Assembly: GCA_021779255.1 (NCBI GenBank) | Contig: JAJYBC010000002.1 | Location: 1-46,234, forward strand | Direction of reading: 5' to 3' | DNA from: a bacterium | Lineage (GTDB): Bacteria; Patescibacteriota; Minisyncoccia; CAIUEV01 | DNA: 46,234 nucleotides | Part shown: one piece after another, positions 2,982-42,898 of the stretch | How the letters are laid out: each line of letters starts with the position of its first letter | How positions within the stretch are numbered: the stretch's first letter is position 1 | The notes under the pieces: generated by a model | What the model was told of the DNA's origin: nothing | The model's database searches: none | The model's input: only the letters and a program-made list of their open reading frames with translations | Position numbers and translations under genes: made by a program

Positions 2982-3006
2982 GGGCAGGTCGCGACCTGCC
3001 CGTACG
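2982..3006. repeat. REP-like GC-rich palindrome, family 1 (GGGCAGGTCGCGACCTGCCC + GTACG)
   Basis: A perfect 20-bp palindrome centred on TCGCGA in AT-rich intergenic DNA. Related copies lie at 4121..4174 and 15158..15195. Confidence 0.8.
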
Positions 3007-3106
3007 TAGTTCGTGTCGACAAATATTTTTTACATTATTTTTTTGCCTTTTTTTAAAGTTTATTCTAAAATAGTAAAGTCAATTTTAATCATCTTAAATA
3101 AAAAAA

Positions 3107-4084
3107 ATGACGAAAAAAATTTGGTTTTTGGGCCTAATGCTAGGGATTTTTGTAGGAATAACGGGAGTTGCTAAAGCCGACGACAGTTTGCCGGTTGAGA
3201 GCGATCCTTTCTGGACAATTATGAGTCAGCTAAACCGACCGGATGATACAACTTGTTATACTAAAACCAAAGCCCTCTTAGATTCTTTGAATCTTGGTTA
3301 TAATACGACCGAGCGAGCAACAGCCACTTGCGCCGGTGTGGCTCGAATTATGGATATGCAGGCAAACATGACAACCGATGGTGTTACTACTAATCTTTTT
3401 GATCAAACTGATTGGCATCACGTGAGCGGTCTCTATTTCGAGAAAACGGGTTATGGACGAATTGAATTTAGTACAGAAATTGATTTTATGAGTCGAGACT
3501 TTATGATTTTTATTCAGACTTTTGGAGAACGCATGGCTATGCAAAAAGATGAAATTAGTTTAGACGCCGATATTGTTGAAAGTTTGCGAACGGCCGGAGC
3601 TGTGCTAACTATGTATAATGTATCTAGCTTCTCTAATCCGGAGATTTTAGTCGATAATGCAACTGATGACGGAAGCGTGGTTTCTAATCTAACGTATGAT
3701 AGTAATAGCCAAACCATTGTTTTTGATGCTGCTCATTTTACTTCTTTTAAAGCGGTGGAAAAAGGAACTGTGGATAGTGGTAAAAAACCGAGAATAACCA
3801 GTGTCGAATTTAAAAAATATATTTCTGATGGCAAGGAAAAAATCAAAGTAGAGATTAGAGGCAAAAAACTAAACAAAGATGCGGTTATCAAATTGGGGCA
3901 TCAACAAATCGATAAAATTACTTGGAAAAACAGTCAAAAAATTGAAGCTACCTTTACCATTAAAAAAGTTTTGAAGGGTAATTATAAAAATCCAGTCATG
4001 CTAAAAATAACCAATCCGGGAGGCAAGTCAAAAAAATATAGTGAGAAAGTTGATTTAGATGATATAATTCTGACCAAGAAATAA
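3107..4084 (+). CDS. hypothetical secreted protein with a C-terminal Ig-like (IPT/TIG-like) region
   Basis: Signal peptide MTKKIWFLGLMLGIFVGITGVAKA/DD. The C-terminal stretch PRITSVEFKK...IKVEIRGKKL...ATFTIKK...MLKITNPGGKS looks like a beta-sandwich Ig-fold repeat. I recognise no family for the N-terminal part. Confidence 0.7.
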   Translation: MTKKIWFLGLMLGIFVGITGVAKADDSLPVESDPFWTIMSQLNRPDDTTCYTKTKALLDSLNLGYNTTERATATCAGVARIMDMQANMTTDGVTTNLFDQTDWHHVSGLYFEKTGYGRIEFSTEIDFMSRDFMIFIQTFGERMAMQKDEISLDADIVESLRTAGAVLTMYNVSSFSNPEILVDNATDDGSVVSNLTYDSNSQTIVFDAAHFTSFKAVEKGTVDSGKKPRITSVEFKKYISDGKEKIKVEIRGKKLNKDAVIKLGHQQIDKITWKNSQKIEATFTIKKVLKGNYKNPVMLKITNPGGKSKKYSEKVDLDDIILTKK

Positions 4085-4120: not shown

Positions 4121-4174
4121 GGGGACAGGTCGCGACCTGTCCGTACGACCTGTCCGTACGATCTGTCCGTACGA
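4121..4174. repeat. REP-like palindrome, family 1, with the right arm repeated three times
   Basis: GGGGACAGGTCGCGACCTGTCC is followed by three tandem 13-nt units (CCTGTCCGTACGA, CCTGTCCGTACGA, TCTGTCCGTACGA). Confidence 0.85.
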
Positions 4175-14324: not shown

Positions 14325-14408
14325 GAATTAAGAGATAAGAGATAGGAATTAAGAACAAATAGCCGGATTTTCTTCATTCTTATCTCCTAATTCTTATCTC
14401 TTTATTCC
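14325..14408. terminator. imperfect long hairpin between convergent genes
   Basis: GAATTAAGAGATAAGAGATAGGAATTAAGAA pairs imperfectly with TTCTTCATTCTTATCTCCTAATTCTTATCTC. It sits between the RodZ-like gene (+) and miaA (-) and overlaps the last codons of miaA. Confidence 0.3.
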
Positions 14409-15383
14409 TGACTTATTAGAGGAATTAGAAATTAGAAATTTTTTTGTTAACCTATTCGCTTCTTGACCATCTTTGACCCAGTGGATTCTTTTGTCTTTTT
14501 TAAACCAATTGATTTGCCGACGGGCAAATTGATAAATTTGTTTAGCCAAATTAATCTCAAGTTCTTGCCTGTTGATTTTATTTTGGAGAAAATAAGATAT
14601 ATACCTAGGTTCTAAACCCATTCTTTCCAGCCGAGCATAGTCGGCTTTTTTTTGAGAAATTATATTTTTTACTTCTTCAATCATACCTTGATTCAATCTC
14701 TCTTTTAATCTTTGAACAATTCGTTTTTTTAGAATTTCGTTAGAATAAATTTTTCCTAAAAAGAGAAAATTATATTTAGGTTCCGACTTTGGTTTGAAAC
14801 TGGCAAAACTTTGACCAGAGACAAGGCAAATCTCCAGAGCTCTTTGCAATCTTCTGGGGTTATTTTGATCGATACCAGTATAGGCCTCGGGATCTATTTT
14901 TAATAAATTTTGCTGGAGCTCTTCTAAACTCATTTTTTCCAGTTTTTGTCGAAGAGTCAGATCTTTTTTAAATTGAGGGAACTGCCAACCTTCTGTAATC
15001 GAATAAACGTAAAAAGGACTTCCGCCGACTACAATAGGTAATTTTTTATGATGTAAGATTTGATTAATAATTTTAAAAGCTTTTTGCTGAAATTCGGCCG
15101 AGCTAAATTCTTCGTTAGGCTCCAGAATATCAATAAGATAAGAGGGAATTGTTTGTTGGGACAGGTCGCGACCTGTCCGTACGCGGCCTGTCTCTGTTAT
15201 AATATATTCATTTTTGTCTTTTCCGGTGCAAAGATCGAGATAGCGATAAATTTGCCTAGAATCGGCCGAAATAATTTCACCGTCAAATTTGACGGCTAAT
15301 TCCACTCCCAGTCTAGTTTTTCCGCAGGCCGTCGGACCTACAACCGCCACCGCTTTGGGCAAATTAAATTTATCTTTTTGCAT
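14394..15383 (-). CDS. miaA: tRNA dimethylallyltransferase
   Basis: P-loop VVGPTACGKT, then IISADSRQIYRYLDLCTGK...YLIDI...IVVGGSPFY. It carries an in-frame insertion encoded by a REP-like palindrome (see findings). Confidence 0.9.
   Translation of the reverse strand: MQKDKFNLPKAVAVVGPTACGKTRLGVELAVKFDGEIISADSRQIYRYLDLCTGKDKNEYIITETGRVRTGRDLSQQTIPSYLIDILEPNEEFSSAEFQQKAFKIINQILHHKKLPIVVGGSPFYVYSITEGWQFPQFKKDLTLRQKLEKMSLEELQQNLLKIDPEAYTGIDQNNPRRLQRALEICLVSGQSFASFKPKSEPKYNFLFLGKIYSNEILKKRIVQRLKERLNQGMIEEVKNIISQKKADYARLERMGLEPRYISYFLQNKINRQELEINLAKQIYQFARRQINWFKKDKRIHWVKDGQEANRLTKKFLISNSSNKSGIKR
15158..15195. repeat. REP-like palindrome, family 1, inside the miaA coding sequence
   Basis: GGGACAGGTCGCGACCTGTCC GTACG CGGCCTGTCTC is the same palindrome as at 4121 plus a degenerate second right arm. 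On the minus strand it encodes ...TGRVRTGRDLSQ... Confidence 0.85.
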
Positions 15384-31633: not shown

Positions 31634-32710
31634 ATGTCTTCAATTGTTCGAGCTGAACAACAATTAAAAAAACTTTTAGAGGTTGTTATTCAACAAGGAG
31701 CTTCCGACTTGCATTTATCTGTGGCTAGACATCCAACCCTAAGAATAGATGGGAAATTGGTTCCTCTTTCCAGTGAAAATATTTTGACCCGCAAGGACGT
31801 CTTCGATCTTTGTAGCGCTCTCATTAACGAGGATCAATTGGAAAATTTAAAAAAAGAATTGCAAATCGACTTTACTTATGAGCTGGAAGGAAAAATGCGA
31901 TTTCGAGTGAATATTTTCTTTGAAACTGGTAATCTAGCGGCCGCTTTGCGTTTAATTCCTTTTAAAATTCGAACCTTAGAAGAACTAAAATTGCCATCGA
32001 TTTTACACCAAGTAATTCGTCAAAACCAAGGGTTAGTATTGATTGTCGGGCCGACAGGCGTTGGTAAATCAACTACCTTGGCCGCTTTGGTCGATGAAAT
32101 AAATCATACTCGAACGGAACATATTATCACAATTGAGGATCCGATTGAATATATTTATAATCCCGATCGTTGCATTATTAATCAAAGAGAAGTCTATAAG
32201 GACGTTAAAACTTTTGCCAATGGTCTCAGAGGTTCTTTTCGAGAAGACGTGGATGTTCTGTTGGTTGGGGAGATGAGGGATGCGGAAACTATCGCTACAA
32301 CCATCACGGCGGCCGAAACGGGTCACTTGGTGATGGCAACTCTGCATACCAATGATTCAGCTCAAACAATTGACCGAATTATTGATATTTTTCCCGCTTC
32401 TCAACAACAACAAATCCGAGCTCAACTTTCCAGTATTTTAGTAGCGGTTGTTTCCCAAAGATTAATTCCCCGAATTGGTGGCGGTCGAGTTCCGGCAGTG
32501 GAAGTTCTATTAAATAATGATGCAGTGAGTAATCTAATTCGAGAAGGTCAAGTTCACCAGATTGTCAATGTTCTGGATACTTCTCTAGAAGAAGGAATGA
32601 TCTCGATTAATCGATCTTTGGCCGAGTTGGTTAAAGAAGAACAAATCACTTTGGAAAATGCCGAAAATTATGCGACCGATAAGCACACCTTGCATATGTT
32701 GTTAAGATAA
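31634..32710 (+). CDS. pilT: twitching motility (retraction) ATPase PilT
   Basis: 358 aa. GASDLHL...PTLRIDG..., Walker A GPTGVGKST, ITIEDPIEY, LLVGEMRD, ATLHTNDSAQTIDRIIDIFP are PilT-type motifs. Confidence 0.9.
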   Translation: MSSIVRAEQQLKKLLEVVIQQGASDLHLSVARHPTLRIDGKLVPLSSENILTRKDVFDLCSALINEDQLENLKKELQIDFTYELEGKMRFRVNIFFETGNLAAALRLIPFKIRTLEELKLPSILHQVIRQNQGLVLIVGPTGVGKSTTLAALVDEINHTRTEHIITIEDPIEYIYNPDRCIINQREVYKDVKTFANGLRGSFREDVDVLLVGEMRDAETIATTITAAETGHLVMATLHTNDSAQTIDRIIDIFPASQQQQIRAQLSSILVAVVSQRLIPRIGGGRVPAVEVLLNNDAVSNLIREGQVHQIVNVLDTSLEEGMISINRSLAELVKEEQITLENAENYATDKHTLHMLLR

Positions 32711-32723
32711 AATAAAAATTTTT

Positions 32724-33923
32724 ATGGATATAAACTTTAATCAGTCAGCTAAGAATCCGAAAGTAGCGATTGACCAAATAAATCAAGCTAATCAGCCAAA
32801 AAAAACGGCGCCGATTAGAGTTGAAAAAAGAACAATTGAAGAAGAAAATAAACCTGTGGATGCTTTTGGTTTTGCGAAGTCTTTTTTTGGGCGAATGAAA
32901 GAAAAAGAGCTAGTAACTTTTTTTCGAGAATTATCGATTTTAGTGGAAGCCAGAGTCCCTCTTATTAGGGCTTTGAAGTCTATTCGTTCGCAAGAACATA
33001 GTCAAGGAATGAGTGAAATGGTGGCTGATTTTCAAAGAAGAATAGAAGGAGGCAACCAATTGTCAGAGGCTATGGAAGAATATGATCGCTATTTTTCACC
33101 CCTTTATATCAACGTGGTAAAAGCTGGTGAAACTTCCGGTCGTCTTGAGGTCGTGCTTAATTATTTGGCGGACAGTCGAGAAAAAAGTTATGAACTTCGA
33201 AGGAAAATAATCGGCGCTTTAATCTATCCAGCGGTTATTATGGCGGCTTTTCTGGGAGTTTTTGTCTTCTTAATGATTTTTGTAATGCCCAATTTAAGTA
33301 AAACTCTGATGGATTCAGGCACTAAGCTTCCTTGGACAACTAAAATAGTCATGGGGATTAGTGGATTCGTAACCAATTATTGGTTTTTTTTATTGTTTAT
33401 TTTGATGAGTTTCGGTTTGGGAATTTTCTACTATTTAAAAACCAAGGAAGGAAAAAGACAGTGGGACGTGATAATTCTAAATTTGCCAATTTTCGGAAAT
33501 TTGTTTCGCTATATGTATATGAATATGTTTGCCGATAACTTGGGGCTTTTACTTAGAGAAAGTGTACCGATTACGCGATCGTTGGAAATTACGGCTGATA
33601 TTATGGGTAACCATATTTATGCCGATGTGATTATGGATTGTGTCAAAGAAGTTCAACGAGGAGGAATGATCAGTTTAGCGTTGGAGAAAAGCAAATATTT
33701 TCCCAATGTGGTACCTCAAATTTTGAGAGTGGGTGAAGAGTCAGGTAAGACGGCTGATACTTTAGCAACGATTGCTAATTATTACAGTAAAGAAGTTAAT
33801 AATTTGACTCAAAATATGATGGCCCTGATTGAACCGATCTTAATTCTATTTTTAGGGGTAGGTGTGGCGATTATAGTGGCTTCGGTTATTATGCCAATTT
33901 ACAATATGGCTGGTAGTATGTAA
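32724..33923 (+). CDS. pilC: type IV pilus platform protein PilC (T2SS F family)
   Basis: Two T2SSF repeats (FFRELSILVEARVPLIRAL... and MFADNLGLLLRESVPITRSLEI...), three TM regions, 399 aa. Confidence 0.9.
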   Translation: MDINFNQSAKNPKVAIDQINQANQPKKTAPIRVEKRTIEEENKPVDAFGFAKSFFGRMKEKELVTFFRELSILVEARVPLIRALKSIRSQEHSQGMSEMVADFQRRIEGGNQLSEAMEEYDRYFSPLYINVVKAGETSGRLEVVLNYLADSREKSYELRRKIIGALIYPAVIMAAFLGVFVFLMIFVMPNLSKTLMDSGTKLPWTTKIVMGISGFVTNYWFFLLFILMSFGLGIFYYLKTKEGKRQWDVIILNLPIFGNLFRYMYMNMFADNLGLLLRESVPITRSLEITADIMGNHIYADVIMDCVKEVQRGGMISLALEKSKYFPNVVPQILRVGEESGKTADTLATIANYYSKEVNNLTQNMMALIEPILILFLGVGVAIIVASVIMPIYNMAGSM

Positions 33924-33973
33924 AAGATAAATTTTTAATTCACCTAATTCAATTAATTTATTAGCTTATCCGA

Positions 33974-34046
33974 AATTTTTATGTATTTATTTCTAGGATC
34001 TTCTCGACAGGATGACTTGTCCACTAAAAATAAATACATAAAAATT
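33974..34046. repeat. hairpin with a family-2-related apical core (copy D)
   Basis: A perfect 19-bp AT stem pairs AATTTTTATGTATTTATTT (33974-33992) with AAATAAATACATAAAAATT (34028-34046). The loop contains CGACAGGATGACTTGTCCACT, matching the core reverse complement at about 18 of 22 positions. Confidence 0.75.
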
Positions 34047-34061
34047 GCAAATATCTATTGC

Positions 34062-34089
34062 TTGACTAAAAATAATTTTGTTAGATAAT
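34062..34089 (+). promoter_or_regulatory. candidate sigma-70-type promoter for the pilin gene
   Basis: TTGACT (34062-34067), a 16-nt spacer, then GATAAT (34084-34089), about 70 nt upstream of the pilin ATG. The pilin ATG is itself preceded by a GGGGGGTGG ribosome-binding site. Such hexamers arise easily in AT-rich DNA. Confidence 0.35.
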
Positions 34090-34161
34090 GATAAAGTCAA
34101 TTAAAATCCATTAAAATATTAAAATAAAAATGGAAAAACAAAATCGAAGGGGGGTGGAAAT

Positions 34162-34599
34162 ATGAGTTGCGGAAAATGTAAAAAAACTAAGAAAACTAAA
34201 AAAACCAAGAAAAAAGGTTTTACCCTTATGGAGCTTTTAGTGGTGGTGGCTATTATTGGAATTTTAGCCGCTATTGTTTTGGTTTCTTTGAATAGCGCGC
34301 GAAACAAAGGTAAAAATGCCGCTATTAAAGCTCAGATGGCTCAATTGCGATCAGCTGGCGAAATGTACAATGAAGAAGTCGGAGATTTCACAGGATGGTG
34401 TGCTAATTCAGAAGCAGCTAGAATCACCCAAGGAGCGATTGATTCGGGAGGAACTCTTCCTAACTGTGATGATAACAATGCAGCTTGGGCTTCGGAGATT
34501 ACTTTGGTTGGCACAACCGATCTTTGGTGTGTTGATTCGACCGGTGTTTCAAAACAGATCACGGCTTCCAAAGGCGCAGACACAGTGGCTTGTCCATAA
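34162..34599 (+). CDS. type IV pilin (probable major pilin)
   Basis: Class III signal ...KKKG/FTLMELLVVVAIIGILAAI with Gly at -1 and Glu at +5, four Cys in the C-terminal globular part, a strong RBS and a strong terminator. It is the last gene after pilC. Confidence 0.9.
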   Translation: MSCGKCKKTKKTKKTKKKGFTLMELLVVVAIIGILAAIVLVSLNSARNKGKNAAIKAQMAQLRSAGEMYNEEVGDFTGWCANSEAARITQGAIDSGGTLPNCDDNNAAWASEITLVGTTDLWCVDSTGVSKQITASKGADTVACP

Positions 34600-34649
34600 T
34601 TTCTAAATGTTATATGTGCGCATGCGCATTTAAAAATGGACAGTTAAAC

Positions 34650-34697
34650 AACAAACGTCCCGCAGATGCGGGACGTTTGTTAATATTTGCCTTTTTC
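34650..34697 (+). terminator. strong rho-independent terminator after the pilin gene
   Basis: A 14-bp perfect stem pairs AACAAACGTCCCGC (34650-34663) with GCGGGACGTTTGTT (34668-34681). The loop is AGAT and a T-rich tract follows. Confidence 0.75.
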
Positions 34698-34749
34698 TAT
34701 TTTCATTGCTATAAAAAAGAGGATAGCAATTATTTCTTAATTAAAATCT

Positions 34750-36270
34750 ATGACGGTTTTTCTTTTAGCGGTTTTATTTTTAGTAATTGGTAGTGTCGGG
34801 GGTTATTTAGCTCAAAATTTTTGGTCGCAAAAAAAGCAAGAAGGCGCTCTAAATAAAGCCGATAAAATTATGGATGATGCCAGATCGGAAGCCAAAGATT
34901 TGATTTTGTCAGCTAAAGAAAAGGCGGTAAAAGCTCTTTCGGAAATTAAGAAAGAAGAACAAATGCGTCGAAGGCAAATGGATAAAACTGAGGAGAGATT
35001 AGAAAAAATGGAAGGCAATATCTCTCGCAGAGAAGAAGATACTCGTCGAGAATGGGATGGACTCAAAAGAAAAGCGGGAGAAGTGGATAAAATTAAGACG
35101 GAAGTTCAAGAATTACGACAAGAGGCGTTAGACAAGTTGCGAACAATAACTAAACTTTCTCCTGAAAAAGCCAAAGAATTACTTTTTAAATCAGTAGAGA
35201 AAGATTACGAAGAAGAAGTCAGAAATTACGTAGCTGGTTTGGAAAAACGTAAAAAATTAGCCTTGGATGATAAAGCCAGAGAAATTATGACTTCGGCCAT
35301 TCAACGTTATGCGGCTGGGCACGTGGTTGATCATACCACGTCTACTGTTTCCATTGGCTCGGACGAGGTTAAAGGCAGGATTATTGGTCGCGAGGGACGG
35401 AACATCAATACGATTGAAAGATTAACCGGAGCGGAAATTATTGTGGATGATACCCCTCAAGCAATTGTGGTGTCGGCTTTCGATCCGATTAGAAGAGAAA
35501 TCGCCAAACAAACTCTAGAGCGATTGGTGGCTGATGGACGAATTCATCCGGCTAGAATTGAAGAAACCATTTTAGAAGTCAAACGAGATATTAATAAAAA
35601 AATAACGGAAGCGGGTGAAGCGGCTATGTACGAAATTGGGGTAACAGGTCTTGACCCTCGTTTAGTCAAGTTATTAGGACGTTTGCGCTATCGAACTAGT
35701 TATGGACAAAATATTTTACTTCATTCCATCGAAGTGGCTCATTTATCCGGCGCTTTGGCTGCCGAATTAGGTTTTGATATTGCCGTGGCCAAAAAAGCCG
35801 GTTTGTTGCACGATATTGGCAAAGCTATTGACCGTGAAGTTCAAGGAACGCACGTAGAAATCGGTATCAATATTTTGAAAAAATTTGGCATTGCCGAGAA
35901 AGTAATTGATGCAATGAAATCACACCACGAGGACTATCCTTTTGCCAGTCCGGAAGCGAGCCTAGTGGCTTCGGCTGATGCCATTTCCGCTGCTCGTCCC
36001 GGAGCGAGACGAGACAGTGTGGAAAATTATTTAAAACGCATTGAAGAAATTGAAGAAATAGCGATGTCCTTCCCAGAAGTGGAAAAAACCTATGCTATTC
36101 AAGCTGGGCGAGAGGTACGAATTTTTGTCTCGCCGGAGAAAATATCCGATTTAGATTCGGTTAAACTAGCTCGATCGGTAGCTGATAAAATTGAAGAAAA
36201 TTTAAAATATCCCGGCGAAATTAAAGTGGTAATTATTCGCGAAACCCGCGTTATGGAATACGCTCGATAA
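34750..36270 (+). CDS. rny: ribonuclease Y
   Basis: N-terminal TM anchor, long coiled coil, KH domain (GRIIGREGRNI) and HD domain (LLHDIGKA...HHE). Confidence 0.93.
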   Translation: MTVFLLAVLFLVIGSVGGYLAQNFWSQKKQEGALNKADKIMDDARSEAKDLILSAKEKAVKALSEIKKEEQMRRRQMDKTEERLEKMEGNISRREEDTRREWDGLKRKAGEVDKIKTEVQELRQEALDKLRTITKLSPEKAKELLFKSVEKDYEEEVRNYVAGLEKRKKLALDDKAREIMTSAIQRYAAGHVVDHTTSTVSIGSDEVKGRIIGREGRNINTIERLTGAEIIVDDTPQAIVVSAFDPIRREIAKQTLERLVADGRIHPARIEETILEVKRDINKKITEAGEAAMYEIGVTGLDPRLVKLLGRLRYRTSYGQNILLHSIEVAHLSGALAAELGFDIAVAKKAGLLHDIGKAIDREVQGTHVEIGINILKKFGIAEKVIDAMKSHHEDYPFASPEASLVASADAISAARPGARRDSVENYLKRIEEIEEIAMSFPEVEKTYAIQAGREVRIFVSPEKISDLDSVKLARSVADKIEENLKYPGEIKVVIIRETRVMEYAR

Positions 36271-36287
36271 AATTTGCATTTGCGTCA

Positions 36288-36403
36288 TTGTGCGGATGAA
36301 TTTTGTATTGTTGTGCGGATGAATTTTGTATTGTTGTGCGGATGAATTTTGTATTGTTGTGCGGATGAATTTTGTATTGTTGTGCGGATGAATTTTGTAT
36401 TTG
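36288..36403. repeat. tandem array, 5 copies of the 23-bp unit TTGTGCGGATGAATTTTGTATTG
   Basis: Counted directly. Units start at 36288, 36311, 36334, 36357 and 36380; the last carries one extra T. Confidence 0.95.
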
Positions 36404-36412
36404 TATTATTGT

Positions 36413-36437
36413 AGAGACGGGTCTCAGACCCGTCTCT
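36413..36437. repeat. 25-bp palindrome AGAGACGGGTCTCAGACCCGTCTCT (left copy)
   Basis: An 11-bp GC-rich stem with a 3-nt centre, identical to the copy at 37027..37051. Confidence 0.95.
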
Positions 36438-36518
36438 TTTTATGTAATTAAAAAAAATTGAGGATTTTTTAATATTTTTTTTATTATTTTTTAATGATGT
36501 TTGGATTATAATTTAAAT

Positions 36519-37058
36519 ATGACCCAATTATTATTTCAAAATAAATATCGAATACCGTCCATTCGATTGAAAAAACACGATTATTCATTGTCGCGGTATT
36601 ATTTTATTACAATTTGTACTCACAATAAAAAATATATTTTGGGAAAAATTATGAATAATAAAATGAAATTATCATGGGTGGGAAAAATTATTAATACCGT
36701 TTGGAAAAATTTACCCAAATATTACTCCAATTGTGTTTTAGATGAGTTTGTAATTATGCCCAACCATATTCATGGTATTATTTATATTAAAAATACCTCT
36801 GGAAATAAAAAACATACATTGTCGGACATTGTCCGATCGTTTAAATCGTTTTCAACGCGGGAAATTAATCGCGTGCAAAAAACACCAAAAAATTTATTAT
36901 GGCAAACACGTTTTTATGAAAATATAGTCCGTGATGGAAATGCATTGGAATCAATCCGTCAATATATTCGGAACAATCCGTTAAAATGGTATCGCGATCG
37001 AAATAATTTTTATTTTGTTGAGAAAAAGAGACGGGTCTCAGACCCGTCTCTACAATAA
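36519..37058 (+). CDS. IS200/IS605-superfamily Y1 (HUH) transposase, REP-associated tyrosine transposase (RAYT)-like
   Basis: YFITICTHNKK..., HUH motif MPNHIHGII, SFKSFSTREIN, and the C-terminal LWQTRFYENIVRD...YIRNNPLKW carrying the candidate catalytic Tyr region. The last codons read through the right palindrome. The ATG at 36519 is preferred over the TTG at 36501. Confidence 0.8.
   Translation: MTQLLFQNKYRIPSIRLKKHDYSLSRYYFITICTHNKKYILGKIMNNKMKLSWVGKIINTVWKNLPKYYSNCVLDEFVIMPNHIHGIIYIKNTSGNKKHTLSDIVRSFKSFSTREINRVQKTPKNLLWQTRFYENIVRDGNALESIRQYIRNNPLKWYRDRNNFYFVEKKRRVSDPSLQ
37027..37051. repeat. 25-bp palindrome AGAGACGGGTCTCAGACCCGTCTCT (right copy)
   Basis: Identical to 36413..36437. It overlaps the 3-prime end of the transposase CDS. 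Confidence 0.95.
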
Positions 37059-37065
37059 TACAAAT

Positions 37066-37203
37066 ACAAAATTCATCCATACAACAATACAAAATTCATC
37101 CATACAATAATACAAAATTCATCCATACAATAATACAAAATTCATCCATACAATAATACAAAATTCATCCATACAATAATACAAAATTCATCCATACAAT
37201 AAT
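37066..37203. repeat. tandem array, 6 copies of the 23-bp unit ACAAAATTCATCCATACAATAAT (inverted relative to the left array)
   Basis: Units start at 37066, 37089, 37112, 37135, 37158 and 37181. They match the reverse complement of the left unit except for 2-3 fixed differences (CCATAC versus CCGCAC). Confidence 0.95.
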
Positions 37204-37251
37204 ACAAAAATACCTCCGTGTTCATGGGTTTTTAGACTGAGATGTCGAATC

Positions 37252-37764
37252 TTATTTGACTTCTTCGCAACGATCCTTAGTATCGCAGGAACAACCAGGG
37301 ACAGTGCCGGTAGTACTGCCGTCATTGCAAGTAAAGATGCCAGTGCTGAAACCGGTAGCCGAAAAAGTATATCCCGAGTTAATAGTAGCTGCTGGAATAT
37401 TACCTGACCAAGCGGCGTCAGCCAACATAGTGACAGTTGTTGAGCCTATTGTAACACTGTAGGTTATGCCTTGAGGAGCAGATTTGATATTGGCGTAAAT
37501 TTTATCAGTTCCGGTGCCAGAAGCACAAGTCAAAGAACCCCCAGTTGTAGCGGCTGTATCAAATTTAATAGTGCGACAGCCTTCACTGGCGGCCATTTCA
37601 TAACCTTTGGATAGTTCCATCATATCCGCTTTAGCTTTGGTGGCCAAGGCTTTTTTACGTCCGCCAGCCACGCTAACAACTACAATTGTGGTTAAAATTC
37701 CAATAATAGCCACTACCACCAACATTTCCACTAGCGTAAAGGCTTTTTGTTTTAGTTCTTGCAT
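37252..37764 (-). CDS. type IV pilin-like protein (Ala at the predicted -1 position)
   Basis: MQELKQKA/FTLVEMLVVVAIIGILTTIVV with Glu at +5. The C-terminal part is Cys-rich (7 Cys). Confidence 0.85.
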   Translation of the reverse strand: MQELKQKAFTLVEMLVVVAIIGILTTIVVVSVAGGRKKALATKAKADMMELSKGYEMAASEGCRTIKFDTAATTGGSLTCASGTGTDKIYANIKSAPQGITYSVTIGSTTVTMLADAAWSGNIPAATINSGYTFSATGFSTGIFTCNDGSTTGTVPGCSCDTKDRCEEVK

Positions 37765-37839
37765 TTTTTGTTTACACTTTTAAAGATAAATTTTTTTAGT
37801 TCGAATATCCTTTAAAATTTTAATAAACCCCTTACTTTT

Positions 37840-38388
37840 TTAGTCGGCGCATCCCCCGCTAACTGAACAAAAACAGCCGGAATTTTTACAGGAATAGAGA
37901 GCTGAAGCAGAAAAACCAGAACCTTTACTACAATAAGTCGGATTGGAGCTGAGAGTTATGGTTGTGCTCGGAGTTCCGTTAGCTGTCCAATTAGCTCCCC
38001 CTGTGGCCGAGTAATATTTTTCACCAGCAACAGGAGTTCCAGTGCAACCGGTAGCCGAATTACTGTCCACATTAATATAATAAGTAAAACCACTGGGTGG
38101 AGTCGATAAAGTAGCGTATTCTTTTGTGGTTCCATCAGGTAAAGTTCCAGATAACTTTAAGTTGGTAGAACCATTCGTGACAGTCAGTGTGTTACAACCC
38201 TCAGCACTAGCTATAGCCATAACATTATTTAATTGAGTTAGATCAGCTTTGGCGCGGGTAGCGTTGGCTTTTTGGCGGGCGCCAGCAATAACAAACGTAA
38301 TAATTCCAGCCAGCACACCGATGATGGCGATAACCACCAACATTTCGATGAGAGTAAAAGCTCTCTTTTTGTTTTGCATTTTTTTCAT
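37840..38388 (-). CDS. type IV pilin-like protein (Ala at the predicted -1 position)
   Basis: MKKMQNKKRA/FTLIEMLVVIAIIGVLAGI with Glu at +5. The C-terminus contains CSKG...CKNSGCFCSVSGGCAD. Confidence 0.85.
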   Translation of the reverse strand: MKKMQNKKRAFTLIEMLVVIAIIGVLAGIITFVIAGARQKANATRAKADLTQLNNVMAIASAEGCNTLTVTNGSTNLKLSGTLPDGTTKEYATLSTPPSGFTYYINVDSNSATGCTGTPVAGEKYYSATGGANWTANGTPSTTITLSSNPTYCSKGSGFSASALYSCKNSGCFCSVSGGCAD

Positions 38389-38482
38389 TTTTTAGGTTAA
38401 TTTTTAACTAAACGAAAAAACAAATAATTTTAACTTCTATATATTTTATATATTCCAAGAAAAAATAAAAGTTGTCAAGGAA

Positions 38483-39409
38483 TTAGAAATTTTTCTCCTT
38501 GTACTCTTTTTCTGTCGGTATTTGAAAATCAATTAATTCTTGAATTGCAGGGGGTTTTTGACTGGGCTGATTGTCGAAAGAAAGCTCCTGATAGCTAATT
38601 TTAACGGTTCCAATTTCCGGAACTAACCAAACTGTCCAATCAGCTTCGACTAGGTGTTTTTCTTGACCAACCTGCTGTTTTTTAGTTAGAGTGATTTTTA
38701 TTTTTTGGGCGGAAAAATTACCGGCAGGAACGTTGATTTCTTCTATGCCCAGTACTTCCCAATAAGTTTGCCAATCTTCTTTTATTTCTCGAGGTTTATC
38801 ACTAGGATTTTCGGCAGTTGTGGATAAGTTGTTGAAAACTTTGCGATTGAGACAAAAATTCTCGACCCAATTGTTGCCTGCTGAAAAGTCTGAATCAAGC
38901 GGTAAAAAAAGATCTTGAGTCTTAGGATCACAAGGCTCAGTAATAATTTGCCCTTGGTTTTGAATCTCCCAGAAATTTAAATCGGATAATAAAATTTTAT
39001 TATCTTGGCAAGCAACGTTTGATCTAACAGTCCAGTTATCCGGACCAGCTAATCGTCCATCTAAAAATGTTAAATTTTCTTCTGGCGCCGGAATGTCGAG
39101 AGTAAGTATTTTCTTCTGATCGCCTTCGGTTAATTGATAGCGCCAGTGAGAACCAGAAATAAAAGGAAAATAGCGACTTTGACAGAAAAGAGGTGCGGTA
39201 ATGACATTTTTTTCTATCTCTTTTTGCAATTTCTGTTTTTCAATCGGGGTTAAAGTGTCGATTGGCGGTTGGCCGTGAATAATTTTATCAATAGTGGAGA
39301 AGCCTTCGTTCCAGTAGCTGAATAAGCCGACTTGAGCGACATCAGTGTACTTTATGAGTAAGGCTAGCAATAGGCTAACGATTAATATGAGGATAAAGTT
39401 GAAACGCAT
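38483..39409 (-). CDS. hypothetical secreted or membrane-anchored protein, first gene of the pilin pair operon
   Basis: N-terminal hydrophobic anchor MRFNFILILIVSLLLALLI on a 308-aa protein with no recognisable motif. It is on the same strand as, and immediately upstream of, the two pilin genes. Confidence 0.65.
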   Translation of the reverse strand: MRFNFILILIVSLLLALLIKYTDVAQVGLFSYWNEGFSTIDKIIHGQPPIDTLTPIEKQKLQKEIEKNVITAPLFCQSRYFPFISGSHWRYQLTEGDQKKILTLDIPAPEENLTFLDGRLAGPDNWTVRSNVACQDNKILLSDLNFWEIQNQGQIITEPCDPKTQDLFLPLDSDFSAGNNWVENFCLNRKVFNNLSTTAENPSDKPREIKEDWQTYWEVLGIEEINVPAGNFSAQKIKITLTKKQQVGQEKHLVEADWTVWLVPEIGTVKISYQELSFDNQPSQKPPAIQELIDFQIPTEKEYKEKNF

Positions 39410-39459
39410 GAGAAATAAATTTTAAACTTTATTATATCAACCCCTTTGGCCTAAGAAGG

Positions 39460-39492
39460 CCACTTCCCCCCCAGCAGGGTGACTTCTCCACT
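39460..39492. repeat. family-2 core, solo copy C (no long stem)
   Basis: CCACTTCCCCCCCAGCAGGGTGACTTCTCCACT. Its reverse complement shares GTGGAGAAGTCACCCTGC (18 nt) exactly with copy A. The right flank AAAATTGAAAA resembles the flank of copy B. Confidence 0.75.
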
Positions 39493-39625
39493 AAAAATTG
39501 AAAATTCTTTTTACTAACACTCTATAGAAAAAATATAATTTATAATAATTGTAAGAAATTAAATTTCTCTTTTATAATAAACGGAAATAACTTTTGACAT
39601 CATTATTTAATAATTTAACTGAAAA

Positions 39626-42600
39626 ATGAAAATAAAAAACAAAAAAAGACGAATCATAGGAGCTTCGATGGCTTTTTGGCTTTTGGGAGGTCAATCGTTT
39701 CTGGCTCTATTGACCATCTCGACCTTATTTTTTAGTGGGAGCTCTTTGGCTCAAGCTTTTTCTTTTGACCGAGCAACTTTTAAAGATTTTCGCTATAGTA
39801 CGGGGACTTTAAATTATTTGGAGAGGATTGATTTGAACAGTTTGGTTAATCAACCACTTAAAATACCGTTTACCAGTCAAAATCCGGAACAAATTCCGGG
39901 AGGCGATCAAGACTGGCTGATTGTTCATCCTCCGGTATTACTCAACCAAAATGCAACCATACCCCTAAGAGTTGATTATTTGTCTTCCGGTCCGGATATT
40001 AGTCGAGAAGATGCACAATTTGTGCAAGAAGTGGGAAATCAAATCAATACTATTGCTAATAATAATCCGGTATTGATTGAAATTGTCAAAAATTTGTTGG
40101 AAAGAAATTTACAAGTTTCCGTTAAAGATGAGTCAAGTTTACTATCTCTTCTTTTCCAGAAAGTTAAAGCGGCCGATACCACAGACAATTCACTTCTTTT
40201 AACGAGCAGTGAACAAAATTCCTTGGGCTTAACTAATTTAGACACAACCAATCCACAAGTCAGGCAGCTCCTAATGGTTATGTTTCTGTTGCTATTAAAT
40301 AATCGATCATTGGCCACGTCGGTTAATCTTGATGAAACGGATTGCGTGAACAGCGGAGGACAATGGGTTAACGGAGCTTGTCAAAACGAACAGACGACTC
40401 TTTGTCAAAATAATGGAGGAATTTGGAAAAAATTTACCAATCAATGTTTGGCTGATCGCCAATTTTGCACTAATTCCGGTTTAAGTTGTACCGGTGTAAC
40501 CAGCACTGATCCTTTTTACGGTTGCGCTTGCAAAACTGGTTCTTGTATCGACGAACAAGATGGTTCTTGTATTCCTCGCAGTGAGAGTAAGAGAGGTAAA
40601 TGTGAAGGATCAAAAGGAACTTGGCAAGAGAGACCTTCTTCCAAGGAAGTTTGTTTGCAACAATGTGATACGACCGAAGCTGATTGTGCCTCGGCTTCGA
40701 CTAGCGACTATACTCAAAGTTATGATTCTAATTTTTATAATAATGGAAATGATAATAGTTCGGCTAGTTTAACTTCGGCCGGTTGCAAATGCCCAGTTAA
40801 CAAATGTCTTTCCTCAGCGGGAGAATGTATCGCCAAGGATGTCTCTAAGTTAGACGACGATAAAGACGGAGTGAATAATACCAACGATCGTTGTCCTAAT
40901 ACGCCTGCTGGCGAAACGGCTAATAATGTCGAAGGAAACGTCAATCGAGGTTGCTCCTGTTCGCAGTTGCAATCGATGGGTAAAATTGCTCAACCCCAAT
41001 GTCCGCCCGACGGTTGCGAGAGCAACTATTTAGTGAAATATGATCGATCGGCTCTGAACAATATGGTTCTTTGCCAAAGTGGAGTTATTCAACAACAAAA
41101 TACTAATTCCAACAGCGCTTGCCCAGTTATTTCTCGTTATCCCGAGGCTCAATGCAATCAGAATAACAATCAAAATCAAAATCAAAATAGCAACTTGGAG
41201 GATTTGTTGAAAAAAATGATGCAAGATAAAAACAAAAAAAAGGATCAAGGCAAGCAAAACCAAGGCGGTGGCAACGGTGGTAATCAAGGTAATCCGTCTC
41301 AACAACAACAGCAGCAACAACCCCAAGGAAATACCAATAATAACAATGATCTCAGCACGCTAGTTAAAAAGCAAGAAACCGGCAACGATCCTTCAGGAGT
41401 GGGAGCAGTTAACGCCGAAATAGACCGAGGAAGCGCCAAAAAACCATTTATTCTGCACGTCAGTCAATTTACCAAGATTTGTAATAGCAATACCTATGTT
41501 TTGACCAATGCCAAAGCAGCGGTTGGCAAATTTCGTAATAAACCGGTCGATAATAAACAAGCAGCTAGTAGTGGCCCAAATAAATTTAAAGGTTGCGGCC
41601 CGCAAGGTTGTCCGGTTGACAAAAATGCCAGAGATCAGGCCAATAAAGTTATCGACAGTGTTAAGGACTGGTCGAAGTATTCCAAAGAAACGGTCGACAA
41701 GATTAACGAATTAGTTAAAACTGATAAACCGGATAATAATACAGCTCAAACGATCAATAATCTTCTTACCAACGGTGCCGCTTCCACCAGCACCGGTCCG
41801 CAATTAGGTGAAGCGGGAAGTATGTTGAATGTGGGCAATGGCGATGTTTATTTCAAAGTGCCGGAGTGTAAAGAACTGGCTTCTTGCCATTGCTGCGCTT
41901 GTGGTTGTTGCGAAAAAGGCAAACCGGACGGTCAATGTGGTTGGGCTTTAGGCAAAGATTGCAAGGAGGGCAAATGTACTGGTGCCGCTTGTTTACAAAA
42001 AACGGTGGATAAATGTCAGGAGAAACAGGAAACAACCATTCAGTTGGATTTTGGCACAGGGGATGTATTTAAATGCTCCAACGAAGGCAGTCAAGCCAAG
42101 ACTATTCAAGATAAATGTAAAACTTTTCAAGAAGATAAAGGTAAAAATTCTTTCCATAACGGTATTTGTAACTATGATTGTGGAGCGGCCAGTGTCGATC
42201 AAAATACCGGTTGTGGCGATAAAAAATACAGTGATTGTGAAATTATTATTCCCAGCGCTCAAAATAATCCGGTCAGATTTAACGTTAAAGGTTCTGAAGT
42301 TGTTGATAAAAATGACGGCGGTACAGCTAAGTTTACTAACCACGAAAAAGGTAGCTTATTGCAAGCCCAGCCTAATTCTTGGGCGGACGGTGGTTGGGTA
42401 AAAGAGCTGGAAGACAAAGAAGGCACTTGCTGCAAATGTATGGCGGAAAAAGACGTCAAACAGCCGGGAAATGCCAAACCGACTGATGATATTAAAAATG
42501 ATCCTTTATGGGACACTTGGGATGAAGGTGTTACACCACCTGTCAAAATTACACCCAATACGGTTCCGCCAATCGGTCAGGTGCCAAACGCCGGAACAAC

Positions 42601-42898
42601 TAGTACAGACAAAATTTCTGATGATCAGAGAAATGAAATTCTAAAAAGAGGCTGGAGCGATCCGGAACGCCAAGATTTAATTAATTACGAAAATTTAAGG
42701 AATAAAGAAAAAATAACGACTCCTCCTACTTTTGAGGATATGCGGAATGCCAAACAGTACAATAATTTTCTAGATAATAGTGGCCATGGTTGGATTTATA
42801 AATATGTTACCGGACCAACTTTTACCGAATGGAAAACTGATTCTTGGCTTAAAGAATATCAAAGATGGAATCCAAACTACACGAGAACCTTGGAGTAA
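39626..42898 (+). CDS. giant secreted cysteine-rich protein with a thrombospondin-type-3-like Ca-binding repeat and a Q/N-rich linker
   Basis: Signal peptide ending SLAQA/FSF on a 1090-aa protein with about 50 Cys by my count. It carries DDDKDGVNNTNDRCPNTP (DxDxDGxxDxxDxC, TSP3-like) and the linker NQNNNQNQNQN...QQQQQQQP. It is a paralog of the next large gene. Confidence 0.85.
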   Translation: MKIKNKKRRIIGASMAFWLLGGQSFLALLTISTLFFSGSSLAQAFSFDRATFKDFRYSTGTLNYLERIDLNSLVNQPLKIPFTSQNPEQIPGGDQDWLIVHPPVLLNQNATIPLRVDYLSSGPDISREDAQFVQEVGNQINTIANNNPVLIEIVKNLLERNLQVSVKDESSLLSLLFQKVKAADTTDNSLLLTSSEQNSLGLTNLDTTNPQVRQLLMVMFLLLLNNRSLATSVNLDETDCVNSGGQWVNGACQNEQTTLCQNNGGIWKKFTNQCLADRQFCTNSGLSCTGVTSTDPFYGCACKTGSCIDEQDGSCIPRSESKRGKCEGSKGTWQERPSSKEVCLQQCDTTEADCASASTSDYTQSYDSNFYNNGNDNSSASLTSAGCKCPVNKCLSSAGECIAKDVSKLDDDKDGVNNTNDRCPNTPAGETANNVEGNVNRGCSCSQLQSMGKIAQPQCPPDGCESNYLVKYDRSALNNMVLCQSGVIQQQNTNSNSACPVISRYPEAQCNQNNNQNQNQNSNLEDLLKKMMQDKNKKKDQGKQNQGGGNGGNQGNPSQQQQQQQPQGNTNNNNDLSTLVKKQETGNDPSGVGAVNAEIDRGSAKKPFILHVSQFTKICNSNTYVLTNAKAAVGKFRNKPVDNKQAASSGPNKFKGCGPQGCPVDKNARDQANKVIDSVKDWSKYSKETVDKINELVKTDKPDNNTAQTINNLLTNGAASTSTGPQLGEAGSMLNVGNGDVYFKVPECKELASCHCCACGCCEKGKPDGQCGWALGKDCKEGKCTGAACLQKTVDKCQEKQETTIQLDFGTGDVFKCSNEGSQAKTIQDKCKTFQEDKGKNSFHNGICNYDCGAASVDQNTGCGDKKYSDCEIIIPSAQNNPVRFNVKGSEVVDKNDGGTAKFTNHEKGSLLQAQPNSWADGGWVKELEDKEGTCCKCMAEKDVKQPGNAKPTDDIKNDPLWDTWDEGVTPPVKITPNTVPPIGQVPNAGTTSTDKISDDQRNEILKRGWSDPERQDLINYENLRNKEKITTPPTFEDMRNAKQYNNFLDNSGHGWIYKYVTGPTFTEWKTDSWLKEYQRWNPNYTRTLE

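Follow-up and report, generated by a model that had tools for sequence, protein, structure and literature searches.

Contig JAJYBC010000002.1 of assembly GCA_021779255.1 (46,234 nt, here called the window; GTDB lineage Patescibacteriota, Minisyncoccia, CAIUEV01) carries, between rny and a convergent pilin gene, a unit (36279-37209) that is probably a REPtron: a gene for a REP-associated tyrosine transposase (RAYT, or TnpA-REP; subclass 2.4, or group 4) set between two inverted cognate hairpins of the repetitive extragenic palindrome (REP) type tagged with GTAG, gained as a block, and bearing outer tandem arrays that would have come about by local amplification of the sequence 5′ of each hairpin. 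From left to right the unit consists of five 23-bp repeats, a 25-nt palindrome, a 179-aa HUH/Y1 gene, an identical palindrome and 6.4 inverted repeats. Direct reading of positions 35900-37600, Tandem Repeats Finder (TRF) and a repeat finder concur on this layout, and the description in the first-pass annotation of this DNA, of a gene set between identical palindromes and inverted tandem arrays, thereby holds. The repeat finder joins both sides into one long inverted repeat with arms at 36279-36459 and 37005-37185 (181 nt, 87% complementary). The sole uncommon feature of the unit is the tandem 23-bp array that extends each hairpin outward.

A subclass 2.4 gene between GTAG-tagged hairpins

By its motifs, the gene is that of a subclass 2.4 RAYT in a bacterium of the candidate phyla radiation (CPR). 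The RAYT-like HUH/Y1 enzyme proposed earlier from HIHGII and YIRNNP is borne out by the presence of both motifs and by a match to Pfam PF01797 (Y1_Tnp; E=2.5e-10, 40.9 bits against a cut-off of 23). Homologues number more than 1000, the best non-self matches being 46-56% identical, and many of them are named RayT by JGI. H83, H85, W128-Q129, Y149, N153 and P154 are invariant in an alignment of 16 sequences, so that the catalytic residues stand up to proper alignment. The profile of this alignment finds its best PDB match in 4ER8, the Escherichia coli TnpA-REP (E=5.9e-5 over 44 residues), with Y149 on Y115 and YIxNNP opposite DYIYINP. Among the PDB matches returned by Foldseek for an AlphaFold2 model (pLDDT 82.8), the first 30 are all Y1 transposases (IS608, ISDra2, IS200, TnpA-REP; E down to 2e-7), and the best superposition is again with 4ER8 (TMq 0.57, root-mean-square deviation 3.8 Å). 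The motifs PNHIHG, LLWQTRFY and QYIRNNP fit the signature NH[IFV]H / WQ / YIxNNP of subclass 2.4, which corresponds to Bertels group 4 (PMC6006769, Table 1). By homology, the protein would be expected to be an active enzyme.

Identity with an IS200/IS605 TnpA (subclass 1.1) was considered and rejected. Elements such as IS608 and ISDra2 do share with the unit the Y1 HUH fold, subterminal hairpins and a guide tetranucleotide 5′ of the hairpin foot. However, their motifs are DH[VI]H and Y[IV]ENQ and they have asymmetric ends located on a single strand, whereas the hairpins here are identical and on opposite strands; the NCBIfam model transpos_IS200 (NF033573) scores 27.6 bits against a cut-off of 55. 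The Asn found here four residues after the catalytic Tyr sets TnpA-REP proteins apart from the IS200/IS605 enzymes, which have Gln at this position (PMC3333891).

The palindromes are GTAG-tagged REPs in the standard inverted arrangement of a REPtron. The left hairpin on the + strand and the right hairpin on the − strand are both preceded by ...ATTATTGTAG, and the GTAG feet therefore point outward, one per strand, on either side of the gene, as described for REPtrons (PMC3333891, PMC3733652). With regard to the long canonical or double-foot REP with 5′ GT[AG]G that characterises the subclass, the window has an 11-bp perfect stem with a single GTAG foot; double-foot forms (GTAG...CTAC) occur in relatives. 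Hairpins of the closest relatives keep the same outer stem (GTAGAGACG...CGTCTCTAC) with different inner stems. The second palindrome had been described as overlapping the stop codon: it does overlap the 3′ end of the open reading frame (ORF), covering the last 10 codons, but the stop itself (TAA, 37056-37058) lies 5 nt beyond the stem. The non-conserved C-terminal tail EKKRRVSDPSLQ that it encodes is without counterpart in homologues. Each hairpin has a T-run on its inward side and a terminator-like score, and the left one would thus terminate rny transcripts and the right one pilin transcripts. The two flanking copies are the only cognate hairpins in the window; few associated repeats have been reported for group 4 (PMC5581495).

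Subclass 2.4 REPtrons (PMC6006769), or group 4 RAYTs (PMC5581495), are like the unit in their motif signature, in a protein length of approx. 180-195 aa and in their long perfect hairpins with a GT[AG]G foot, inverted around the gene. They are scattered across many phyla (PMC6006769, PMC5581495); a literature search found no report linking RAYTs with CPR bacteria, to which the locus extends RAYT and REPtron biology. An in-frame REP between HUH and Tyr is the predominant, although not universal, hallmark of the subclass (PMC6006769). Unlike most of its 160 relatives and the related protein P0003 discussed below, the window gene has none, nor has P0002, of which the contig is 521 bp only. Where present, this internal GTAG hairpin lies just after HUH (about 250-290 nt into the ORFs; about 520-550 in locus L003) and is translated as VETGLKPVST or VGAGFKPAPT. 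A further difference lies in the outer flanks, formed here by non-palindromic 23-bp arrays of which there is no mention for the subclass in the literature found. More generally, the literature search gave no description of such arrays as outer ends of RAYT or IS200/IS605 elements, in keeping with the novelty suspected at first pass.

Arrays at the outer ends and their counterpart in a second element

The array unit is composed of a 15-nt module, TTTTGTATTnTTGTA, which is the sequence flanking the hairpin, plus 8 nt. TRF finds 5.0 copies on the left (100% match, score 228) and 6.4 on the right (99%, score 287). The two arrays differ from each other at three fixed positions: TTGT is followed by GC in the left and by AT in the right array, and the unit boundary has G and A, respectively; the last left unit has a terminal T in place of G. 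A 14-nt stretch of the hairpin-proximal module recurs exactly in each right-array unit (repeat-finder pairs). The pattern TTTTGTATTNTTGTR has 12 matches in the window, all of them within the unit, against 0.16 expected. The 23-mer itself has 11 matches, and neither it nor the palindrome occurs in the 46 kb beyond the unit; shuffled sequence gave matches to neither. A decayed partial repeat at the outermost left end remains recognisable (TTTGCGTCATTGTG versus TTTGTATTATTGTA, 10/14 positions alike). As single-stranded DNA the arrays are unstructured, and they have no Rfam match; a structured RNA or DNA in the arrays was rejected on these grounds.

The locus was recovered in three independent assemblies (ENA ERZ27236853, ENA ERZ27236866 and Logan SRR17201898), in which GCGG-type units are joined to rny and ATGG-type units to the pilin gene. 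Two contigs with rny (L099, L100) break off inside the left array after at least 5.5 and at least 4.5 GCGG-type units, respectively, and the right array has 3 units in L001 and L101 compared to 6 in the window. The assemblies were made with k=141, by which arrays beyond approx. 6 units are not resolvable, and since contigs break inside arrays every copy number is a minimum. Doubt attaches to copy number and per-array purity only; that the repeats exist and are joined to unique flanks is secure. The counts of five and six copies given at first pass thus agree with TRF as minimum values, other assemblies differing. Likewise, the observation that arrays are uniform inside and differ at two or three fixed positions holds for the window, with three such positions, but rests on short-read assemblies that may have collapsed or folded back; homogenisation within each array is plausible.

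These irregularities could also mean that the arrays, or their array-specific variants, are artefacts of short-read assembly. Contigs L099, L100, L002 and L003 all end inside arrays, copy number varies by assembly (3 versus 6; 5 versus at least 5.5), and the left side of L101 is a perfect mirror of its right array. Such an explanation is scarcely credible given repeats in three independent assemblies, each type joined to unique flanks, and a diverged homologous array in a second element. As to L101 (4514-5370; ENA ERZ27236866 k141_880143), right-type (ATGG) units are exactly mirrored left of its RAYT gene, and L100, from the same sample, shows GCGG units after rny. This mirror may have arisen when the assembly folded back through the inverted repeat; otherwise, the left array may be composite and longer, or the contig may represent a variant in the population.

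The second element belongs to P0003, a RAYT with 54% amino acid identity to that of the window (loci L002-L004) and with different neighbouring genes, and the layout is conserved in it: an array, a GTAG hairpin with a different inner stem, the 5′ region, the gene, a second hairpin and inverted units. Its left array has at least 5.9 perfect 21-bp units (TGATGTTTTGTATTTTGTACG) up to the end of the contig; the inverted units on the right are degenerate, of 15-18 bp, with 69-85% matches. Units of the two elements are homologous (window TTGTGCG-GATGAATTTTGTATTG, L003 TTGTACGTGATG--TTTTGTATTT). In all four arrays the unit opens with the module that directly precedes the hairpin, that is TTTTGTATTnTTGTA followed by the G of GTAG, and the arrays are without exception located 5′ of GTAG on the strand that bears it, where their sequence is rich in G and T.

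The region upstream of the RAYT gene, with a predicted promoter, is 82% identical between the window and L003, as are codons 1-45 (82%), and more so than codons 46-85 (65%). This suggests either constraint on a regulatory region or an earlier exchange by recombination between the two elements, both of which are present in the same samples. Locus L194 has the −10 region too. All three members of the sub-clade have TGG(A/G)TTATAAT 6-8 nt ahead of the ATG (window 36503-36521; L003 about 215-240; L194 1-23) and lack a Shine-Dalgarno sequence; the RAYT may have an mRNA with little or no leader.

Exact scans for two tandem 23-mers (GGATGAATTTTGTATT-N7-GGATGAATTTTGTATT) in GTDB genomes and JGI metagenomes gave no match, which disposes of the possibility, raised at first pass, that the 23-mer is a widespread satellite. 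The junction of module and hairpin was likewise absent from IMG/VR in an exact scan. Protein-guided scans of genomes, metagenomes and viral contigs yielded 160 loci of 33-47% identity, none of them viral; these lack the 23-mer and contain just occasional unrelated tandem repeats.

Features of the REPtron unit in the window
Feature	Position	Strand	Details
Decayed partial repeat unit	36279..36287	+	leftmost end of the long inverted repeat; 9 nt past the rny stop codon
Left tandem array	36288..36402	+	5 x 23 bp, TTGTGCGGATGAATTTTGTATTG; between rny stop codon and hairpin, 5′ of the GTAG foot on the GTAG strand; TRF
Hairpin-proximal copy of the 15-nt module	36399..36414	+	ATTTGTATTATTGTA; ends in the GTAG foot (36411-36414); every array unit starts with the same module
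Left REP hairpin	36413..36437	+	AGAGACGGGTCTCAGACCCGTCTCT; 11-bp stem, 3-nt loop, then TTTTT; terminator-like on the + strand
Conserved RAYT 5′ region	36458..36518	+	promoter-like TTGAGG-18-TATTAT; TGGATTATAAT 6 nt before ATG; promoter scan
RAYT / TnpA-REP gene, subclass 2.4	36519..37058	+	179 aa from ATG; HUH H83-I-H85, catalytic Tyr Y149, Asn N153 at Y+4
Right REP hairpin	37027..37051	-	same sequence as left; GTAG foot 37053-37050 (-), then TTTTTC on the - strand
Right tandem array	37062..37209	-	6.4 x 23 bp, - strand reading TTGTATGGATGAATTTTGTATTA; between pilin stop codon (37252-37254) and hairpin, 5′ of the GTAG foot on the - strand; TRF

Origin and possible role of the arrays

By homology, the RAYT would bind the folded single-stranded hairpin with its GTAG foot, then cut nearby and rejoin single-stranded DNA through a 5′-phosphotyrosine intermediate, as described for characterised enzymes (PMC3333891, PMC3479197, PMC8266576). 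The 23-bp arrays could then represent local tandem amplification of the sequence just 5′ of the GTAG foot, by one of two routes. [quoted passage not shown] Alternatively, strands could slip during replication at the hairpin. Expansion and contraction would keep each array homogeneous and its copy number unstable, and the arrays may persist because the stretch they occupy, from a stop codon to a terminator, is permissive.

We favour amplification because the arrays share the signature of E. coli tandem BIMEs: copies are identical inside an array but diverge from one array to the next, and array length is unstable. E. coli tnpA-REP is bordered by tandem BIMEs whose copies are near-identical within a locus and whose number depends on the strain (PMC3333891). 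As locus-homogeneous, copy-variable repeats are thus already known beside a RAYT gene together with a published amplification model, the arrays are best viewed as a variant of known behaviour. The E. coli REPtron (group 2; 4ER8) is like the unit in its Y1 HUH gene framed by GTAG REPs and in REPs that double as terminators (a predicted role in the window), and its one-unit strand-transfer model would also suit the window. It differs in that its units are whole REP pairs with linkers and bulged stems, compared to a 23-nt hairpin-less flank module beside one perfect hairpin, in its only distantly related protein, and in its hundreds of dispersed REPs.

A survey of 160 other subclass 2.4 loci from many phyla (L019-L098, L104-L183) indicates that repeats next to hairpins are a habit of the family. 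These loci contain 305 GC-rich hairpins and 35 tandem repeats of period 10-70 with at least 2.8 copies. Of the 35, 16 adjoin a hairpin (within 12 bp), against 2.35 expected and a maximum of 8 in 2000 permutation trials, i.e. approx. 7-fold more than by chance. The repeat unit forms part of the hairpin itself in 10 of the 16, and half-hairpin units occur in L139, L141, L110, L134 and L021; the unit of L139 comprises flank, GTAG and left arm (AAAATGTAGGGGCAATTC, 5.1 copies), and that of L134 the 3′ arm. A literature search found no such quantification of tandem repeats and REP hairpins around subclass 2.4 genes. The 23-mers of the window match this family pattern in their position and in their first 15 nt.

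Locus L060, from an Altimarinota metagenome-assembled genome (JBFWVJ010000001.1), has at 3061-3166 a perfect array of 8.1 copies of a 10-bp unit (GGATGACGCA) between the RAYT stop codon and the downstream hairpin. This hairpin-less array adjoins a REP in a CPR-like genome, on the non-GTAG side. The sequence GGATG recurs in the unrelated arrays of L060, L106 and L161; the cases are too few and the strand is inconsistent.

The repeat-beside-hairpin pattern is also followed by a second hairpin family in the window (GGACAGGTCGCGACCTGTCC, CGTAC tag on the − strand), with copies at 2983-3000, 4124-4174 and 15160-15177. In the copy at 4124-4174, three 13-nt units of tag plus left arm (TRF 13 x 3.2, 96%) come before the full hairpin on the − strand. 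No cognate RAYT for this family is present in the window. The first-pass annotation had proposed that the arrays might seed hairpins elsewhere in the window; these GTAC-tagged hairpins carry none of the array module, and the proposal was rejected. The copy at 15160 lies inside an ORF (14394-15383, −).

Several observations weigh against the reading of the unit as a subclass 2.4 REPtron with amplified flanks. Regarding the gene, the top NCBIfam model, REP_Tyr_transpos (NF047646), scores 69.4 bits, under its cut-off of 80; this model was presumably built chiefly on proteobacterial groups 2 and 3. No dispersed REP population was seen in the 46 kb. Array-bearing elements known are two, while the closer relatives P0004, P0005, P0007 and P0045 lack arrays: P0004, with a gene tightly packed in an operon, and P0007 have neither hairpins nor arrays, P0005 has a downstream hairpin only, and P0045 is a classical REPtron with BIME-like REP clusters. 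The array unit is neither a REP nor a BIME and contains no palindrome, and the resemblance of its final 8 nt (TGGATGAA or GCGGATGA) to the hairpin arm (GAGACGGG) is weak, with 3 identities and 3 transitions in 8, so that derivation of the unit from the hairpin itself is unproven. Since CT and CA, the dinucleotides cleaved in characterised systems, are both absent from the arrays on their GTAG strand, the site at which a RAYT would cut for adding units is uncertain. Finally, the TTTTGTA core, its position and its strand are kept in four arrays of two elements while unit length drifts (23, 23, 21 and 15 bp), which could reflect selection on a binding motif, beyond mutational bias.

This last point leads to the view that the arrays are iteron-like multimeric sites, in which RAYT molecules or a host protein would sit on the TTTTGTA units to control cleavage, pair the ends or regulate the RAYT gene. 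Besides the core, G/T-richness too is kept while the rest of the unit changes, and the arrangement is symmetric at both ends. HUH replication initiators of circular Rep-encoding single-stranded (CRESS) DNA viruses and of plasmids use iterons adjoining the nick-site hairpin. Those origins resemble the unit in having short direct repeats beside a hairpin, with HUH nicking on their side, but their repeats are 2-4 in number and of 5-8 bp and are bound by a dedicated N-terminal specificity region of Rep, and the window lacks a replicon, a helicase domain and a skew switch. In the window protein neither Pfam nor the model reveals a DNA-binding domain besides the Y1 core. Most relatives of the same family do without arrays, the right array of P0003 is decaying, and complete identity within arrays combined with fast divergence between them is the product of expansion and contraction rather than of site-by-site selection. 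In structure 4ER8, TnpA-REP contacts the hairpin and GTAG and no repeated flank (PMC3479197). On balance, iteron-like sites are possible but not likely.

A role in replication or partition, also suggested at first pass, was rejected, and with it a replication origin or terminus: cumulative GC skew rises through the locus without reversal and rep or par genes are absent. DnaA boxes were dismissed as well, the array unit agreeing with the box at 7/9 positions at most and containing no box with 0-1 mismatches.

A more ambitious version holds that the arrays are a working part of the element, an iteron-like landing pad on which several RAYT molecules load along the GTAG strand beside each hairpin, or else the trace left in vivo by rolling amplification that the RAYT primes. 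In both cases the small REPtron would represent a natural link between mobile IS200/IS605 elements and domesticated RAYTs. It is tempting to speculate in this direction, as it would offer a direct handle on the amplification of REP-associated repeats, but we regard it as quite unlikely.

The arrays could instead act in RNA, as same-sense UUGURYGGAUGAAUUUUGUAUU repeats in the 3′ untranslated regions of rny and the pilin gene that bind a protein or affect stability. The order in which stop codons, arrays and inward terminator-like hairpins follow one another is compatible with this, and GGAUG in the array unit resembles the core of CsrA-type sites. However, same-sense geometry is automatic for an inverted repeat between convergent genes, the arrays are unstructured and without Rfam match, and the rny-pilin spacers of relatives lack repeats. 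A function in RNA is therefore very improbable, and the more specific notion of a CsrA sponge, with one GGAUG per unit, was dropped, as P0003 units have no GGA.

Already known are the REP hairpins, the way in which one of them overlaps the ORF at its 3′ end, and the REPs inside the RAYT genes of relatives. What is new is that hairpin-less tandem arrays lengthen both ends, in at least two elements; this is a variant of known local REP-repeat amplification and no new system. The making or amplifying of REP-type repeats by RAYTs has so far been a matter of in vitro reactions and models alone. The locus offers a compact natural case, with one gene, one perfect hairpin type and flank-derived arrays within 931 bp, and with a diverged second example and empty sites for comparison. 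If array length varies within populations and the enzyme acts on the hairpin, the published strand-transfer model becomes testable with simple substrates. If the arrays are mere slippage products the locus is ordinary; its interest would be greater if the RAYT builds or uses them.

Gain of the unit between rny and the pilin gene

In three sets of relatives with Rny homologues of 79-80% identity, rny is directly convergent with the orthologous pilin gene, and the empty sites that the first-pass annotation had thought worth seeking are thus found. Their spacers of 75, 173 and 161 bp hold one bidirectional or two ordinary terminator hairpins and neither a RAYT gene nor repeats. The spacer in the window is 981 bp, 931 bp of which are the unit. 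The GC content of the unit is 28% (RAYT ORF, 29.8%) compared to 34-43% for 20 long host ORFs, which together with the direct apposition of rny and pilin genes in relatives points to gain as a block. By this comparison of sequences, the unit was gained in the spacer between the convergent genes, and its hairpins now occupy the place of the ordinary terminators seen in relatives. Homology between the empty-site spacers and the unit was considered and rejected: L191 shares AGACGGGTC with the hairpin, in a local alignment no better than those of shuffled sequences. More distant Rny matches are named Moranbacteria or Parcubacteria, by which the host, a Moranbacteria-like bacterium, is assigned to the CPR.

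The unit could accordingly be, or recently have been, an autonomous mobile element similar to an insertion sequence or a TIRtron, with arrays and hairpins as transposon ends. Apart from the empty sites, the long inverted repeat described above would suit such an element, and so would the AT-rich islands formed by both array-bearing elements (29.5% versus 43-44% GC for that of P0003) and the presence of the second one, of the same layout, in another genomic context. RAYT-like genes with long terminal inverted repeats (TIRYTs) have been described, and in these TIRtrons the repeats sometimes overlap the 3′ end of the ORF (‘3′ov’), as here; some mix degenerate GTAG units with unrelated sequence (PMC3733652). 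In the window, by contrast, the core of each arm is a genuine GTAG REP and the remainder a tandem array sharing the 5′ flank module of this REP, and no family of dispersed repeat copies was found. The unit is a single copy in 46 kb, the exact scans of GTDB genomes, JGI metagenomes and IMG/VR gave no other copy of array or module, and no target-site signature is visible. Its gain was not recent, as the empty-site relatives are only approx. 80% identical in Rny. Y1 enzymes transpose a specific strand, on which the two ends are asymmetric, whereas the ends here are inverted and on opposite strands, and E. coli REPtrons are immobile as units (PMC3333891). We therefore consider autonomous mobility unlikely.

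Two further observations concern the surroundings. Compared to L187 and L191, a block of rny and two pilin genes within 31634-42898 is inverted relative to its neighbours, which are genes for type II secretion proteins E and F plus a pilin gene on one side, and a DUF3108-like gene and a gene for a 1090-aa protein on the other. The RAYT unit lies in the middle of the inverted block, away from the breakpoints, and a hairpin with a perfect 15-bp stem is found at one breakpoint (34650-34681). Near the left end of the window, a tRNA-Ala gene (TGC, 1657-1731) overlaps the start of a listed ORF (1653-2366), which, if a real gene, must start later.

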